Shown here: positions 11,665-16,053 of the stretch, piece by piece | Position numbering within the stretch: the stretch's first letter is position 1 | Layout of the letters: each line of letters begins with the position of its first letter | DNA from: a virus | Lineage: Duplodnaviria > Caudoviricetes | Virus record (IMG/VR): IMGVR_UViG_3300013121_000013 | Location: 64,001-128,000 of that record | Length of the DNA: 64,000 bases | Direction: 5' to 3' (one strand) | Notes under the pieces: generated by a model | Told to the model about the DNA's origin: nothing | Databases searched by the model: none | Seen by the model: only the letters and a program-made list of their open reading frames with translations | Translations under genes and position numbers: made by a program

Positions 11665-12402
11665 ATGATGTTGTCCAGATTTCCTAGATTTATTATATCG
11701 ATCATAATTTTAAGCACCATGCTTGTAGGTGCTACGCTAAAAGCAGAAGAAGGAACTAATTCTGTTCCTGGTCTAGTTCTACCTCCAAATAGCTCTGTTA
11801 GCTATAATAATGTAGCAGCTATAAGAATTAAAGCTAACACTACATCTAAAAATGTTAGATTCTTAGTTGTTGGTAGCGTACCCGATATTAAGTCTAAGCA
11901 AACAGATGCAAATACTATTGTTATAGATTTACCACAAAAAGACGCAACTATTTTTGTTTATGCAGTTGCTTGGTTGAATGGAGATTTCACTCCGTTTGCT
12001 AAAACTGTGGTGGTTGTAAAGGGAGACAGCACATCTGTTTCTTCTGACCCTGTTAATCCAACTACATCTACACCCTCGAAGGAATCTTTACCTGAGTTGG
12101 ATAAAAGTATAGCTATAACAATTGTTATGGATAAAGTTGATAATAAAAGTCAAGTTGTTAGTAATTATGTTAAGTCTAAAGAAGTACAAGATTGGCTAAC
12201 ATCTGGCAAGCACAAACTTATAATATATTATAACGACAATCCCGAACATTTAGCTTCTATTAAAAGACGTAAGCTTGAAGCGTTCTTAAAACCTACTGGG
12301 ATGGTTACACAAGAACTCTCAACCGGGACTTTACTTGATAGTAGGCCTGTCCCGGCAACTTTAGAAGACTTTATTAAAAATATAAATGAAATGTTTAAAT
12401 AA
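11665..12402 (+). CDS. Exported protein with signal peptide, Pro/Ser/Thr linker and two domains
   Basis: basic N-terminus, hydrophobic stretch and LKA cleavage-like site; DPVNPTTSTPS linker. Confidence 0.55.
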   Translation: MMLSRFPRFIISIIILSTMLVGATLKAEEGTNSVPGLVLPPNSSVSYNNVAAIRIKANTTSKNVRFLVVGSVPDIKSKQTDANTIVIDLPQKDATIFVYAVAWLNGDFTPFAKTVVVVKGDSTSVSSDPVNPTTSTPSKESLPELDKSIAITIVMDKVDNKSQVVSNYVKSKEVQDWLTSGKHKLIIYYNDNPEHLASIKRRKLEAFLKPTGMVTQELSTGTLLDSRPVPATLEDFIKNINEMFK

Positions 12403-12418
12403 GAACTAGGAGATATAA

Positions 12419-12823
12419 ATGTCAACTCATGTTTTATCGATGCTGACTGATGAGCAGAAGACAGTCGCAGAGCTAATGGTAGTAAATCATAATCTTAGCT
12501 GGGATTGGGTTTCTGATTTAGTAAATAAAGCATCGCCGGCAGTTTTGGATCTAGTTAGGCTAGCTCTAGACTTGGGTTTAAGTAAAGAATGGGTAGCTGA
12601 AGCTTTAGATAAACTCGGTCCTGTTATGTTGGAGTTTATCATTGTCGTGCTCAGAAAAAAGGAGCTAGATAATGTTCCAGCCTCAGCATCGAATATGTCA
12701 CATGTAGAGGATCTACAGCTAAACGATCTAGTTAAAAAGCTATTGCCAGCCCTGCTAGACGCCTTTGGCCCACAAATAGTGGATTTACTGACTACAGCCC
12801 TAATTAAAGCCCTGGCAAAGTAA
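12419..12823 (+). CDS. Small Leu-rich helical protein with internal repeats (possibly membrane-associated)
   Basis: 134 aa; repeated LSxxWVxxxxxKxxPxxL-like units; AGGAG RBS. Confidence 0.45.
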   Translation: MSTHVLSMLTDEQKTVAELMVVNHNLSWDWVSDLVNKASPAVLDLVRLALDLGLSKEWVAEALDKLGPVMLEFIIVVLRKKELDNVPASASNMSHVEDLQLNDLVKKLLPALLDAFGPQIVDLLTTALIKALAK

Positions 12824-12833
12824 TAGTCCAATA

Positions 12834-14675
12834 TTGAATACAAAGCCGTTTAATGAAACGGCTTTGTATTCTACTGATTTAATGAAAAGGACAGAGATGA
12901 CACCTGGTAACAACTATAACAGATTGAATGTTGTTCTGACATTAATAGTGACTGTTGCTATTTTTGGTTTAACACTAAGAAATACTGAGAGTAAGGACTC
13001 ATATAAGGTGTTAATTCCTAGCTCCTTTAAGTTGCTAGAAGCAGAAGGTAAAGAATTTCTTATACCTAATCTAACTAGTTTAAAGGTTGTAAATCTTAAG
13101 GATCTGCCTATGTACAGTGGGCCCGGACAATCTAAGGACGGCCCAAATATTCCAGATCAAAAAAAAGAAGTACTACCATTTAGACACGTAGTACCAGCTA
13201 AAGCATTACTTAATCCTCAACACTCGACATTTCACGCTAATTTGGATTTACTAACTGTCCCTCTGGAAGACAGAAAATATTTAATGTATTTTTCCGCATA
13301 CAATTTTCCTAAGGAACACCGAAGAAGTATATGGGAAACACTGTCGTTTACAGTGAATTCGCTAAGTACAGAAAGAGCTATAAAAACTCCTGTAATAGTG
13401 GCTAACACGGATGACTCTCTCTTTAGAATAGATATTAGATGGTATGGATGGGATAGAAAAGTCGTAGAAGAGTTAATTACAAAGGGCAGTGGTCCAAAGC
13501 CATTACCAGAACCTTATTTCTATATGACGTTTGTTAAAGCGGAAGACGCTAAAGTAGAGAAAACTCCATATACAGAAAAAGAAACAGTTTTAGTTCAGAA
13601 TCAATTTGGGCAGCTTGTGCATCATACAAGAGAGGTTACAAAGTATAGAGAAGTTAAGACGGCTGGAAGTAAGAAGACTATACAAGCTATTGCTCCGTGG
13701 ATATCGCCTATATCAGCAAAGACTCTTTCAGAAAGCTTGCATACTACTACTCCTATAGTTAGAGCAGATTGGTTTATAGTGTACTCTATGTTTGCGCCAA
13801 TGTATTATAAGTTTCTCGGGGTTAAAGATAGAAAAGAAAAAGAACTTAAAGTCATAGCTATCTTCGATGAAAAGAATACGGATAAAGTAGAGTTAAGAGG
13901 TACGGCTGATACTAAAGTTGTAGCTTTAAATAATAGAATTCTTGTTAGAGTTCCAACTATAGCTTCTGTTAAAGGCGCCTACTGGTGGGAGTCCAACGAT
14001 TTTTCAAAAAGTGTAGATGAGGGCGATGTTCACAACAATTTGTTTGCAACACCAGAAGCTAAGGAAATTATATTTTCATTAAGAAATGGTTTGCAGGCTT
14101 ATGGATTATCGGATAAAGACGGAAATCTAGTAGATGTTGCACCTCCGCAGTTTGCCCAAGATACAGAGATTAAGAATCACGATAAGCAGGTATACAACGC
14201 TAGAAATTGTGTTACTTGTCATCAACAAGGTATACGAACCTTTAAAAATAAAGTAAAAGAATTAAGTCAAGGTACGGTCGCTCTTCTGGTGGCTAAAGAG
14301 AAGGATGCAAAGAAGGTAGAAGATAAATACTTCTCCTATGACATAGAAGATCTTATTAAAAGAGATCAGTTGCTATACTCAGAAGCAGTTGCATCTGTTA
14401 ACGGACTAACTGCTGCAGCAAATGCAACACAGTTTGATCTTCTTCAATATAACTATCTTGAAAACCAAATAACCCTATCAGCAATAGCCTATGAAACAGG
14501 GATTGAAAAGGAAAAGATACTAGACATGCTAAAAAAAGCCGTTAATATAGACCATACTTTAGTCGGGTTATTAAAAGAAGATCCCATCAGCATACGTAGA
14601 GAACAATTTGAACGAAGAGGGTTTCCTCAACTAGCTATGCTTATAATGCAGGCTAACTTGTACTCTGATAAGTAA
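12834..14675 (+). CDS. Membrane-anchored/exported protein with CxxCH c-type heme motif
   Basis: N-terminal hydrophobic segment; EIIFSLRNGLQAY...NCVTCH (CxxCH at 14208-14222); real start probably 12881 or 12897. Confidence 0.65.
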   Translation: MNTKPFNETALYSTDLMKRTEMTPGNNYNRLNVVLTLIVTVAIFGLTLRNTESKDSYKVLIPSSFKLLEAEGKEFLIPNLTSLKVVNLKDLPMYSGPGQSKDGPNIPDQKKEVLPFRHVVPAKALLNPQHSTFHANLDLLTVPLEDRKYLMYFSAYNFPKEHRRSIWETLSFTVNSLSTERAIKTPVIVANTDDSLFRIDIRWYGWDRKVVEELITKGSGPKPLPEPYFYMTFVKAEDAKVEKTPYTEKETVLVQNQFGQLVHHTREVTKYREVKTAGSKKTIQAIAPWISPISAKTLSESLHTTTPIVRADWFIVYSMFAPMYYKFLGVKDRKEKELKVIAIFDEKNTDKVELRGTADTKVVALNNRILVRVPTIASVKGAYWWESNDFSKSVDEGDVHNNLFATPEAKEIIFSLRNGLQAYGLSDKDGNLVDVAPPQFAQDTEIKNHDKQVYNARNCVTCHQQGIRTFKNKVKELSQGTVALLVAKEKDAKKVEDKYFSYDIEDLIKRDQLLYSEAVASVNGLTAAANATQFDLLQYNYLENQITLSAIAYETGIEKEKILDMLKKAVNIDHTLVGLLKEDPISIRREQFERRGFPQLAMLIMQANLYSDK

Positions 14676-15372: not shown

Positions 15373-15396
15373 CAAATTTATTTCAAGGAGAATTAG

Positions 15397-15996
15397 ATGA
15401 AGAATCTTATCTTTACAGTTTTTGCGTCGTTTGTAGCTTTCACCGGAAATGTGTTTGCTGGCCATTGCGGTGTCAGCTCAGTAAGTTATAATCATGCCTA
15501 TAGCCAAGTTGTAACTCAGGCTGCATATACATATGTTGCTCCTATAGTCGTTCCTCTTGTGGCGTTACCAGTACAACCTGTTGTTTCTCAGGTACAGGCC
15601 ACTGTGCAGCAAGCTCCAGTAGTTGTTACAGCTCCAGTAGCTCCTGTATACTCTCAGCCAGTGGTAGGTTTTAATGTTTACTCTCTTCCTCAAACCTACA
15701 ATTATGGAGTTAGCCAGCTTGGAGTAGCTGCTAAACTAGTGAACACTGTAAAAGTAGTAGCGCCGCATGCTCCAGCCAAGGTTGTGTTGCAGCAGAAAGT
15801 TGTTAAGATTAAACAGCCAGTTGTTGTCAAGCAACAAAATGTGATTGTTAAGAGGCAGGAAGTTGTTGTCAAACAGCAAAATGTTGTTGTAAAAAGACAA
15901 AACGTGCAGAATCAAAGATTGGACGTAAAAGTCGTTAATAGATCTGCGTCCAGATTTTCTGCTAATAGAGTTTCAGTAAGAGTTAGATCTAGATAA
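15397..15996 (+). CDS. Exported Val/Gln/Pro-rich low-complexity protein
   Basis: signal peptide ending VFA; repeated VVVKQQ/VIVKRQ units; AAGGAG RBS. Confidence 0.6.
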   Translation: MKNLIFTVFASFVAFTGNVFAGHCGVSSVSYNHAYSQVVTQAAYTYVAPIVVPLVALPVQPVVSQVQATVQQAPVVVTAPVAPVYSQPVVGFNVYSLPQTYNYGVSQLGVAAKLVNTVKVVAPHAPAKVVLQQKVVKIKQPVVVKQQNVIVKRQEVVVKQQNVVVKRQNVQNQRLDVKVVNRSASRFSANRVSVRVRSR

Positions 15997-16019
15997 AATC
16001 TTCAAATTGAAGTGACATA

Positions 16020-16053
16020 AAGCACCTTGTGTGTTAAACTCAAGGTGCTTATT
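16020..16053 (+). terminator. Intrinsic terminator-like hairpin closing the exported-protein cassette
   Basis: AAGCACCTTG / CAAGGTGCTT 10-bp stem followed by AT-rich sequence. Confidence 0.6.

Follow-up and report, generated by a model that had tools for sequence, protein, structure and literature searches.

The lambda-type lysis cassette consists of a holin, an endolysin and spanins, and to our knowledge no described lysis cassette has a counterpart of the two haem-motif proteins reported here. Bacterial di-haem cytochrome c peroxidases and MauG use a His/Met electron-transfer haem to supply a second one, which has no conserved Met ligand. Matrix metalloproteinase (MMP) zymogens combine a PG-binding-like prodomain, a PRCGxPD cysteine switch and an HExxHxxGxxH motif. 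A further bacterial family, found mostly in Planctomycetota, is built of a signal peptide, a PSCyt1 or class I cytochrome c domain (PF07635, PF13442), a body of ∼450 amino acids that contains another CxxCH, and C-terminal domains that vary (WD40, TPR, FGE-sulfatase, beta-helix/PDZ); Pfam has no model for the body, and our searches found no described function. In Listeria monocytogenes, a phage-origin metzincin and its TIMP-like partner alter the wall, sensitize cells to phage lysis and raise phage-mediated lysis and virion release (PMC8235301).

Here we describe a cassette of an uncultured wastewater phage whose gene set is conserved among related phages and which resembles each of these systems in part. 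A literature search found no paper describing it.

Locus organization

Within the window, the 64,000-nucleotide stretch of a Caudoviricetes record that was analyzed, five co-oriented ORFs occupy positions 11665-15996 between a Baseplate_J gene and a structural gene (Table 1), as originally predicted. Because the first cassette gene follows the Baseplate_J stop at a distance of just 7 nt, we read the cassette as co-transcribed with late genes, and the proposal of late expression stands. Four of the five proteins had been said to carry signal or anchor peptides, and a scan gives one N-terminal hydrophobic segment in each of the 245-, 613-, 228- and 199-aa proteins and none in the 134-aa protein.

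Table 1. Features of the cassette and its borders, in window positions.
Feature	Position	Strand	Basis or remark
Baseplate_J gene	9978-11657	+	Pfam Baseplate_J, E 1.7e-11; upstream border
Exported 245-aa protein	11665-12402	+	ORF; first cassette gene
134-aa helical protein	12419-12823	+	ORF; second cassette gene
Hairpin, perfect 16-bp stem	12836-12871	+	Fold energy; between 134-aa gene and haem trio
Large exported haem-motif protein	12897-14675 (592 aa, ATG) or 12834-14675 (613 aa, TTG)	+	ORF; signal anchor and CVTCH
Exported 228-aa partner, class I cytochrome c domain	14686-15372	+	ORF; CARCH and MPP
Secreted 199-aa Val/Gln-rich repeat protein	15397-15996	+	ORF; composition
Terminator-like hairpin closing the cassette	16021-16050	+	Fold energy
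495-aa structural gene	16083-17570	+	Synteny in L001 and L009; downstream border

Where a terminator was predicted, there is a terminator-like hairpin with a minimum free energy of -20.9 kcal/mol and a z score of -4.56 (1 of 200 shuffles folds as well), followed by a tail that is only moderately T-rich. A terminator consensus scan omitted this hairpin, whose 11-nt loop is longer than the scan's loop limit. The hairpin ahead of the haem trio is stronger (-23.1 kcal/mol, z -6.63, a stability reached by none of 200 shuffles) and resembles a terminator or attenuator. Since it falls within the ORF that starts at TTG 12834, we revised the start of the large gene, which is probably ATG 12897 (592 aa, with AAGGA upstream) or ATG 12882 (597 aa); database gene calls for the protein are also 592 and 597 aa. 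The ORF and CVTCH motif originally assigned to a 613-aa protein are thus retained, but a length of ∼592 aa is more likely.

Homologues of the Baseplate_J gene (35-39% identity) occur in L001, L009 and L019, where each is followed by the same cassette, and homologues of the 495-aa gene come after the cassette in L001 and L009. Family searches with the 495-aa ORF (Pfam and others) gave no match, and the earlier description of this gene as wedge-like is tentative. This conserved position between baseplate and structural genes might indicate that the cassette proteins are virion baseplate or tail components. Nonetheless, four of the five carry Sec-type N-terminal segments, and haem is attached to CxxCH outside the cytoplasm, where tails are not assembled. 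Moreover, L004, L007, L002, L017, L021 and L052 carry this cassette at a distance from tail genes, adjoining ThyX-like or nucleotide genes in the first two, and in L027 and L022 the terminase large subunit is encoded just downstream. A virion role is therefore extremely improbable, and the description of the cassette as part of the tail module does not hold.

The large haem-motif protein

The CVTCH motif (residues 459-463 in 613-aa numbering, nucleotides 14208-14222) contains the only two Cys residues of the large protein. Among 82 aligned relatives, C459, C462 and H463 are invariant, as are Y324, R368, D389 and E411, and the alignment contains no conserved distal Met or second His. Such conservation is more in keeping with a haem that has a catalytic or ligand-binding role than with a simple electron carrier. 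Exactly one CxxCH is present in all 154 closest relatives, 123 of which have an N-terminal hydrophobic segment. The family matches 4452 representative clusters at E≤1e-3, and the nearest ESM Atlas clusters are mostly viral, which runs counter to the earlier view of c-type cytochromes as unusual phage cargo.

No Pfam model covers the body of the large protein, no PDB sequence matches it, and these searches place it in no peroxidase, oxidase or other recognizable redox-enzyme family. The phage's own proteins score below the Pfam cut-offs for FixO (17.4 versus 29.6) and Cytochrome_CBB3 (17.6 versus 27). Cytochrome P460/beta-sheet cytochrome c' (PF16694) shares with it a single late CxxCH, a largely beta domain and the lack of a distal Met. 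P460 appears in an ESM Atlas structure row with a TM score of 0.24 by query and 0.49 by row, and hhalign places the CxxCH motifs in register at 43.6% probability, compared with 24.7-30.6% for an unrelated cytochrome family used as control; the large protein matches P460 in neither Pfam nor PDB sequence searches.

The partner protein and its bacterial counterpart

The 228-aa protein comprises a signal peptide, a V/P-rich segment with the sequence VPAYSFQY, a helical and Pro-rich linker, and a C-terminal class I cytochrome c domain. Its CARCH motif (residues 161-165, nucleotides 15166-15180) and the MPP (residues 200-202, nucleotides 15283-15291) of its distal RMPP lie where the original prediction had placed them, and one of its three Cys residues is inside the signal peptide. 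Across 24 partner proteins, C161, C164, H165, M200 and P201 are invariant, 20 match Pfam Cytochrome_CBB3 at E≤0.01, and 14 conserve a tether motif, [VI]P[AT][YF]..x[YL]. The invariance of CxxCH in both sets of homologues, which had been proposed as a check, indicates that both haem motifs are under selection, and the large and 228-aa proteins are predicted to carry covalent haem. In 23 of 26 viral loci, the partner gene comes directly 3' of the large one; the remaining three loci run out at a contig edge within 404 bases.

In bacteria, mostly Planctomycetota, the large body and a cytochrome c domain reside in one protein. The body is homologous to that of the phage protein (tblastn E 5e-27 to 7e-13; clade support 100 in a quick tree) and retains the family CxxCH. 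In 14 of 22 genome loci, a single protein consists of an N-terminal cytochrome c domain and the body, and 5 of the 10 bacterial proteins that were scanned score above the Pfam cut-off for PSCyt1. A profile built from the 24 phage partners only matches the N-terminal CxxCH domain of all 14 fused proteins (E 5.1e-12 to 5.4e-5) and gives no match to their second CxxCH. These data show that the two phage haem-type proteins are the separated parts of what is a single fusion protein in bacteria. In contrast to the bacterial arrangement, the phage cytochrome domain is encoded by a separate downstream gene and carried on a V/P-rich tether, and phage forms lack C-terminal add-ons.

The proposed pair follows a similar logic to cytochrome c peroxidase/MauG, in that a His/Met haem would feed a Met-less one. 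It differs in that the phage body is about three times larger and the haem motifs are on two polypeptides; PF03150 is not matched, nor is there any other Pfam or PDB sequence match to that family.

Might the CxxCH of the large protein instead be a CxxC thiol-disulfide or metal site, acting for example on the cysteine switch or catalytic Cys of a protease? The body has no cytochrome-fold match above Pfam cut-offs, the hhalign score against P460 hardly exceeds that against the unrelated CxxCH family, and the protease classes linked to the cassette (papain-like, MMP-like and caspase-like; see below) all depend on a Cys thiol. Against such a site, all 82 aligned relatives keep the His that follows the second Cys, and an exported CxxCH would be seen by host CcsBA or Ccm systems. 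In addition, the body is joined in bacterial forms to a genuine cytochrome c domain, implying a redox cofactor there. We regard a non-haem site as very improbable and retain haem attachment as the working assumption.

Accessory proteins

The 245-aa protein, with a signal peptide, a beta-rich domain, a Pro-rich linker and an alpha/beta C-terminal domain, has no match in Pfam, PHROG or NCBIfam; homologues are encoded upstream of the large haem gene in nine loci and in L052. The 134-aa protein contains no Cys and no signal peptide. Its homologues immediately precede the large haem gene in L001, L004, L007, L021 and L052, and the one in L007 gives only weak Pfam hints, such as SapB_2 over 16 residues.

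The 199-aa protein contains 52 Val, 21 Gln and only two acidic residues (D+E), with VVVKQQN-type repeats and a basic C-terminus. Homologues come after the partner gene in L004, L007 and L021, such that the trio of large, 228-aa and 199-aa proteins does recur in other loci, a co-occurrence that had been suggested as a check. Third genes of like composition are found in L002, L017, L016, L027 and L052. Repeat proteins of sister phages are Tyr/Gly/Phe-rich instead of Val/Gln-rich, and those in L002 and L017 have 47-51 Tyr.

These repeat proteins raise the possibility of envelope remodeling rather than lysis, in which a haem enzyme oxidatively modifies or cross-links the repeat protein and wall proteins into a coat or matrix, which would prevent superinfection, mask receptors or stabilize the infected cell. 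Such a role would accord with the secreted, nearly acid-free repeat protein, which always comes after the haem pair where present, with the Tyr content in L002 and L017, with the tether motif of the partners, and with the invariant Tyr, Arg, Asp and Glu of a large protein that has no conserved distal Met or His. The bacterial homologues, moreover, are chromosomal and non-lytic; their presence in chromosomal operons speaks against an inherently lytic function. However, some loci have no repeat protein, late-operon and pre-terminase positions suit egress better than exclusion, and neither a peroxidase or oxidase family nor a PADLOC family is matched. We consider remodeling an unlikely explanation.

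Protease linkage and lysis context

Of 26 viral loci, 9 have a Peptidase_M10 gene next to the cassette, as do two MAG-binned phage contigs, and 5 have a papain-like Peptidase_C1 gene inside it, as does LR756511; 12 of the 26 have no protease gene within 5 kb of the cassette. Bacterial operons of the fused homologue carry caspase-like genes. Protease type follows the haem-protein tree, with 14 label changes versus an average of 25.0 after shuffling (none of 200 shuffles gave so few), and one phage clade has the papain-like protease while another has the MMP-like zymogen. These gene neighborhoods and the tree show that the haem pair is genetically tied to a protease.

The phage's own record (G000) encodes a protein with PG_binding_1 and Peptidase_M10 domains, both above cut-offs (G000:819-1694). 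Like MMP zymogens, it carries a cysteine-switch-like motif, PRFCGLPD (PRCGMPD in the L015 protease), and HEIGHAIGIPH; unlike them, it is phage-encoded and has neither a signal peptide nor a haemopexin domain. The record of L009 (78% completeness) contains neither an M10 nor a C1 protease. As the phage proteases lack signal peptides, a holin would be needed for them to meet the periplasmic haem pair, and none was identified.

The parallel with the Listeria pair is a metzincin-class protease of phage origin that acts together with a second protein. In Listeria, however, the protease is secreted, whereas the phage M10 enzyme has no signal peptide; a lipoprotein resembling a protease inhibitor takes the place of the haem proteins, and the host is Gram-positive (PMC8235301).

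With its terminase-proximal location, the module occupies the lysis-cassette position in some phages (L027 and L022). Further likenesses to the lambda-type cassette are an enzyme with a PG-binding-type domain, part of the module in L010 and represented here by G000:819-1694, and exported proteins that would be made ahead of lysis. None of 12 related phage records, 4 of them at least 90% complete, contains any of eight standard endolysin families, in a survey that had no matched control phage set and, for Glyco_hydro_19, no positive control; an M10 MMP-like protease is present in 10 of the 12 and in all four of the most complete. None of four endolysin families tested occurs in G000. Unlike the lambda-type cassette, the phage module shows no peptidoglycan hydrolase family and no recognized holin or spanin features, and here it sits inside baseplate genes with the protease 75 kb away.

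A third reading is an auxiliary metabolic module, whose cytochromes would join host periplasmic electron transport and keep energy flowing during infection. The partner is indeed a His/Met class I cytochrome c, and phage-borne cytochrome genes such as soxD have reportedly been classed as auxiliary metabolic genes. Yet no respiratory or substrate-oxidizing enzyme accompanies the haem pair, its constant companions are proteases and secreted repeat proteins, and the large protein belongs to no recognizable redox-enzyme family. We consider a metabolic role improbable.

Proposed role

Among the three functions first suggested, envelope breakdown or lysis gains contextual support from the protease linkage, the terminase position and the endolysin survey; rewiring of electron flow and superinfection exclusion have gained no support. 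The broader interpretation of exported, haem-type, redox-related and late proteins is kept, without the tail assignment or the rarity of the cargo.

Our preferred reading, tentative at a probability of about 0.45, is that the cassette encodes an exported haem/redox module of late infection, which is coupled to a protease and would act on the envelope, probably in lysis. The host Sec system would export the cassette products to the periplasm late in infection. At the core would be a two-part haem protein, in which the 228-aa His/Met cytochrome c, on its long V/P-rich tether, may pass electrons to or from the ∼592-aa protein, whose one CxxCH is in a domain that matches no recognized fold. The repeat protein, the exported 245-aa protein and the presumably cytoplasmic 134-aa helical protein travel with this pair. 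Since related phages keep the cassette beside a protease, it may help to break the cell open. The haem pair would work with that protease, either an MMP-like zymogen with a PG-binding-like prodomain or, in sister phages, a papain-like enzyme, and might serve as a redox-dependent activator or sensor of the protease step. Its most likely job would then be breakdown of the host envelope at egress.

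Organization of the cassette

Five co-oriented open reading frames lie between a Baseplate_J gene and a 495-aa gene of the window (see table). The five-gene cassette with two CxxCH proteins described in the original prediction is borne out by the reading frames, the motifs and the hydrophobic segments, of which the 245-aa, large, 228-aa and 199-aa proteins each carry one at the N terminus and the 134-aa protein none. The earlier reading of the genes stands for the cassette itself, with the start of the large gene corrected and a second hairpin added. The last three genes have a strong hairpin on either side, and the first of the two falls inside the large open reading frame if this is read from a TTG codon (613 aa). 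Therefore, either ATG 12897 (592 aa, with AAGGA upstream) or ATG 12882 (597 aa) is the most likely start; database gene calls for the large protein are 592 and 597 aa long.

The Baseplate_J stop codon and the first cassette gene are only 7 nt apart, and the other intergenic gaps are also short, which suggests that the cassette is read together with the late structural genes. The hairpin that precedes the last three genes may serve in attenuation or processing of the late transcript, and thereby permit separate dosing of these genes. The parent phage record (G000), of which the window spans bases 64001-128000, comprises 155,646 bases and is 76% complete as estimated by CheckV. Close relatives of this stretch, with word shares of 0.39-0.58, are present in wastewater metagenomes from three studies (2018, 2019 and 2023); a look-up of RNA data sets containing the stretch listed none.

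Features of the window and of related loci. L handles denote loci of related phages or bacterial genomes; L050 is part of G000.
Record	Position	Strand	Feature	Basis or remarks
Window			Baseplate_J gene, 5' of cassette	Pfam E 1.7e-11
Window	11665-15996	+	Five co-oriented cassette ORFs	ORF reading
Window	12836-12871		Hairpin at boundary of 134-aa gene and heme trio	Perfect 16-bp stem, loop AATG, -23.1 kcal/mol, z -6.63
Window	16021-16050		Hairpin closing cassette	-20.9 kcal/mol, z -4.56
Window			495-aa gene, 3' of cassette	No family match; syntenic in related phages
Window	18205-20634		809-aa protein, presumably tail fiber	Two long collagen-like runs of G-x-Q-G-P/D-Q triplets
Window	21111-22085		324-aa gene	Homologs in L001, L002 and L004
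Window	57154-57382 and 58300-58372		Four tRNA genes	Thr-TGT, Gly-GCC, Asn-GTT, Cys-GCA
L002	4141-5535		HldE-like bifunctional gene	PfkB kinase + cytidylyltransferase-like
L007	5953-7275	-	HldE-like bifunctional gene	PfkB kinase + cytidylyltransferase-like
L017	6920-8311		HldE-like bifunctional gene	PfkB kinase + cytidylyltransferase-like
L001	4651-6555		Papain-type protease interrupted by intein at catalytic Cys	Intein_splicing, Hint and LAGLIDADG matches
L008	8459-8932		Small gene near module	Hydrophobic segment
L015	13187-14115		Small gene near module	Hydrophobic segment
L029	11507-12616		~390-aa exported protein	Bacterial operon
G000 (L050)	C1:819-1694		PG_binding_1 + Peptidase_M10 gene, MMP-like zymogen, outside window	PRFCGLPD (cysteine-switch-like), HEIGHAIGIPH, no signal peptide
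G000 (L050)	1788-2066		92-aa ORF 3' of M10 gene, candidate holin	N-terminal hydrophobic segment

The large heme-motif protein

A word-based search returned 7 relatives of the large protein, and a profile search extended the family to 4452 representative clusters at E<=1e-3 (1976 at E<=1e-30). We aligned 82 of 155 proteins, comprising the window protein, the 7 word-search relatives and 74 of 147 further sequences chosen for single-stretch matches. Conservation of CxxCH in homologs had been set as a check on the original proposal, and the motif proves invariant in the 82 large-protein sequences (C459, C462 and H463), as are Y324, R368, D389 and E411. The two cysteines of CVTCH are the only ones in the whole window protein, and no second conserved histidine or methionine is found among the 82 sequences. 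Exactly one CxxCH is present in all 154 closest relatives, 123 of which have an N-terminal hydrophobic segment. The large protein of the window also has a signal anchor; a conserved CxxCH in an exported protein is what c-type cytochromes in general are expected to show.

No recognizable cytochrome c model matches the large protein: FixO scores 17.4 (cut-off 29.6) and Cytochrom_C 13.2 (cut-off 21.3). Likewise, no Pfam model covers the body (the region shared with bacterial fused proteins) in any of the 82 members, FixO being touched at E<=0.01 in only two, and a profile search of PDB sequences gave a best E value of 0.066, to an unrelated protein. Pfam, PHROGs and NCBIfam yielded only sub-threshold cytochrome matches for the five window proteins. 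These results would fit an unlikely alternative in which the CxxC of the large protein forms a non-heme site; on the other side stand the invariant histidine of the motif, the signal anchor and the relation to bacterial fused proteins described below.

Clusters of the ESM Atlas nearest to the large protein are mostly viral (Uroviricota), and its structural look-alikes are bacterial proteins that also bear PSCyt1. The nearest named clusters, Aq_1262 lipoproteins at 0.77-0.78, fall under the level at which such matches carry meaning and were set aside. Comparison with the cytochrome P460/c'-beta family (PF16694) gave an hhalign probability of 43.6% with CxxCH in register, only marginally above unrelated CxxCH families (24.7% and 30.6%; reversed or shuffled alignments, 0.0-0.3%), and the corresponding ESM Atlas row is weak (TM 0.24/0.49). 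We thus retain this likeness as a lead and not as evidence. PSCyt2 and PSD1 (DUF1549/DUF1553), which come after the cytochrome domain in planctomycete PSCyt1-PSCyt2-PSD1 proteins, had no Pfam match in the window proteins, the 82 relatives or 10 bacterial homologs.

The partner cytochrome and its fused bacterial counterparts

A class I cytochrome c (Pfam PF13442, PF00034 or PF07635) carries its distal methionine ligand about 35 residues past the heme motif, and MP or MPP is typical of PSCyt1-type domains. The 228-aa partner protein conforms to this arrangement: its CARCH occupies residues 161-165, and all 24 partners share, without exception, both CxxCH and the pair M200-P201, which lies ~35 residues further on. 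Two of its three cysteines belong to CARCH, and the third resides in the signal peptide. A homolog search with this protein found only 2 relatives. The proposed check by profile models gave a mixed outcome: no cassette protein of the window reaches the cut-off of a Pfam cytochrome model (for the 228-aa protein, Cytochrome_CBB3 17.6 versus 27 and Haem_bd 21.9 versus 27), whereas 20 of the 24 partners match Cytochrome_CBB3 at E<=0.01 (best E 8.9e-9), with Cytochrom_C in five, Haem_bd in five and PSCyt1 in three.

Homologs of the large gene occur in 26 viral loci, each encoding one CxxCH. In 23 of these, a small gene on the same strand lies directly 3' of the large gene; the remaining three break off within 404 bases. 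The product of the small gene has a signal peptide and a V/P-rich stretch, with a CxxCH placed 65-70 residues before the C terminus. Many partners (for example those of L002, L004, L008, L015, L022 and L027) have a cysteine 1-2 residues past the point where the signal peptide is predicted to be cleaved, and a VVVR-type strand comes next. This cysteine is missing from the 228-aa protein of the window, and its 199-aa neighbor has one at the matching place.

Bacterial genomes carry the same two parts in a different arrangement. Among 22 genome loci (15 labeled Planctomycetota), 14 encode one fused protein in which an N-terminal cytochrome c domain precedes a body with its own CxxCH, two have the phage-like split form (contigs binned into MAGs), four have the body alone and two are fragments. 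PSCyt1 exceeds its cut-off in 5 of the 10 bacterial homologs scanned with Pfam, and their C-terminal additions vary (WD40, TPR, FGE-sulfatase, beta-helix/PDZ). A profile built from the 24 phage partners alone matches the N-terminal CxxCH domain of 14 of 14 fused proteins, with E values from 5.1e-12 to 5.4e-5, and does not match the second CxxCH of these 14 proteins.

The co-occurrence raised as a check in the original prediction is found for the pair, in 23 of 26 viral loci and, in fused form, in 14 of 22 genome loci. No other finding speaks as strongly for joint action of the large and 228-aa proteins, and for a redox cofactor in the body, as this split/fusion relation, which also predicts which two proteins must interact. 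Judged from their sequences, the two heme-motif proteins, with covalent heme predicted for both, are one split system. The bacterial fused family is the nearest relative of the phage pair. A likeness to di-heme peroxidases is one of logic, and these enzymes gave no match in Pfam or PDB searches.

Genomic neighborhoods of the cassette

The wider cassette is conserved to varying extents. Homologs of the 245-aa exported protein precede the large gene in 9 loci, and those of the 134-aa protein and the 199-aa repeat protein are found in 4 and 3 loci, respectively. In further loci, the partner gene is followed by a gene for a secreted, almost acid-free repeat protein with a basic C terminus and similar composition. 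It is conceivable that the heme pair cross-links this secreted protein oxidatively into a coat; the recurrent gene order speaks for such a role, and the absence of the repeat protein from some loci speaks against it. A curli-like nature of the repeat protein was considered and rejected, Pfam giving just a weak KRTAP match for the L007 homolog.

Among GenBank phage records, the family occurs in LR756511.1 alone, an unannotated record of a 595-kb uncultured phage, in which the cassette has six genes: 245-like, papain-like protease, 134-like, large heme protein, partner and repeat protein. This record presumably belongs to a huge-phage study whose annotation tables might name the cassette genes. 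No published description of the cassette was found in the literature, supplementary files lying outside the search.

The window, L001, L009 and L019 all have the cassette between Baseplate_J and the following structural gene, which might indicate that the cassette proteins are virion parts. However, at least 8 loci place the cassette apart from tail genes, and four of its five proteins carry export signals. Its neighbor is an opposite-strand ThyX-like gene in L004 and L007, a heptose-activation gene in L002, L007 and L017, and, just 3' of the module, the terminase large subunit gene in L027 and L022. In view of these varied positions, the cassette is not a part of the tail. The HldE-like genes beside the cassette in three jumbo phages, together with homologs of the 324-aa gene of the window, suggest that heptose activation and transfer genes travel near the cassette.

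Proteases linked to the heme genes

Protease genes of two types accompany the phage cassettes. In 5 of 26 viral loci (L001, L004, L007, L019 and L021) and in the LR756511 locus, a Peptidase_C1 (papain-type) gene with visible catalytic Cys, His and Asn motifs is flanked by the 245-like and 134-like genes; the L001 gene is interrupted by an intein. The large gene has a Peptidase_M10 (matrixin-type) gene as its neighbor in two MAG-binned phage contigs and in 9 of 26 viral loci. All 11 of these adjacent M10 proteins contain HExxHxxGxxH, most have a cysteine-switch-like motif (PRCGMPD in L015), and one has PG_binding_1. No protease gene lies within 5 kb in 12 of the 26 viral loci. The G000 record, which has no papain-type gene, encodes its M10 protein 75 kb from the cassette. 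A search of five records with a papain-type protease or none found no M10 gene, and PADLOC assigned no defense family to the five window proteins, the M10 protease or the C1 protease.

The bacterial bodies form one clade, with support of 100, in a quick maximum-likelihood tree built from 48 bodies (short rows L040 and L048 left out). The M10-linked phages form another with support of 96 (13 rows, 10 with M10), and the papain-linked group has support of 87. Protease labels change 14 times on this tree, compared with a mean of 25.0 for shuffled labels, and none of 200 shuffles was as low.

Bacterial operons encode a conserved ~390-aa exported protein, present in 9 loci, together with caspase-like proteases fused to FGE-sulfatase or TPR. 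The ~390-aa protein (L029, L030, L035, L036, L038, L041, L042, L044 and L045) is encoded directly after the fused heme gene and before the caspase-like genes, ends in ...VRY(N/S/K)(R/K), and has no Pfam or NCBIfam match. NCBIfam gave nothing useful for the bacterial homologs and proteases. Taken together, the cassette is a conserved phage module in which a split protein, with two hemes predicted from its motifs, is tied to a protease.

A possible function in lysis

The lysis genes of phage lambda sit just upstream of terminase. A comparable pre-terminase position is seen for the modules of L027 and L022, and not in L004, L007 or the window, where the cassette lies within baseplate genes and includes no wall-degrading enzyme. 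We surveyed endolysin families in 12 viral records of the M10-linked clade, four of which are at least 90% complete. Phage_lysozyme, SLT, Amidase_2, Peptidase_M15_4, Peptidase_M23, Glyco_hydro_25, Amidase_3 and Glyco_hydro_19 (the last without a positive control) were each found in 0 of 12 records and 0 of the 4 near-complete ones, and Peptidase_M10 in 10 of 12 and 4 of 4. G000 has none of the four endolysin families surveyed there. Small genes with hydrophobic segments lie near the modules of L008, L015 and L050.

A metzincin pair of phage origin sensitizes Listeria to phage lysis (PMC8235301). This precedent, the pre-terminase position, the absence of the surveyed endolysin families and the presence of M10 make lysis the leading idea. 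Several observations weaken it: the survey took in eight families only, with no matched control phages, the phage proteases lack a signal peptide, no holin was identified, the bacterial homologs are chromosomal, and the need for heme has no explanation. The heme proteins themselves do not resemble spanins. An auxiliary electron-transfer role is a less likely alternative, for which the class I cytochrome c features of the partner speak and against which the protease linkage speaks. The original interpretation is supported in part: an exported module of heme/redox type is upheld, and its function, which is not established, is best guessed to be lysis or egress.

A mechanism can be envisaged in which the large and 228-aa proteins would receive their heme in the periplasm from the CcsBA or Ccm system of the host. 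Electrons might then pass, in either direction, between the tethered His/Met cytochrome and the heme of the large protein, and the distal site of that heme could be open or unusual in view of the invariant Tyr, Arg, Asp and Glu. Such a redox device might serve as activator, targeting factor or sensor for the protease in opening the envelope; one route would be through the cysteine switch, after the zymogen arrives in the periplasm. More broadly, the hosts of a large group of uncultured phages, probably Planctomycetota along with other bacteria of wastewater or sediment, might be lysed by a latent protease instead of a peptidoglycan hydrolase and spanins. The exported two-heme device would control activation or targeting and would sense or use the periplasmic redox state, making lysis redox-gated. 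In cells, the bacterial fused homologs and their periplasmic caspase-like proteases would form the counterpart, with proteolysis under the same heme control. We consider this full reading speculative, with a probability of roughly one in five.

If it holds, these phages possess widespread and previously undescribed machinery that places heme proteins in the host envelope, is tied to a protease and may stand in for the classical route of endolysin and spanins. It would also offer the first functional handle on a very large family without a Pfam model, whose 4452 representative clusters span phages and Planctomycetota.
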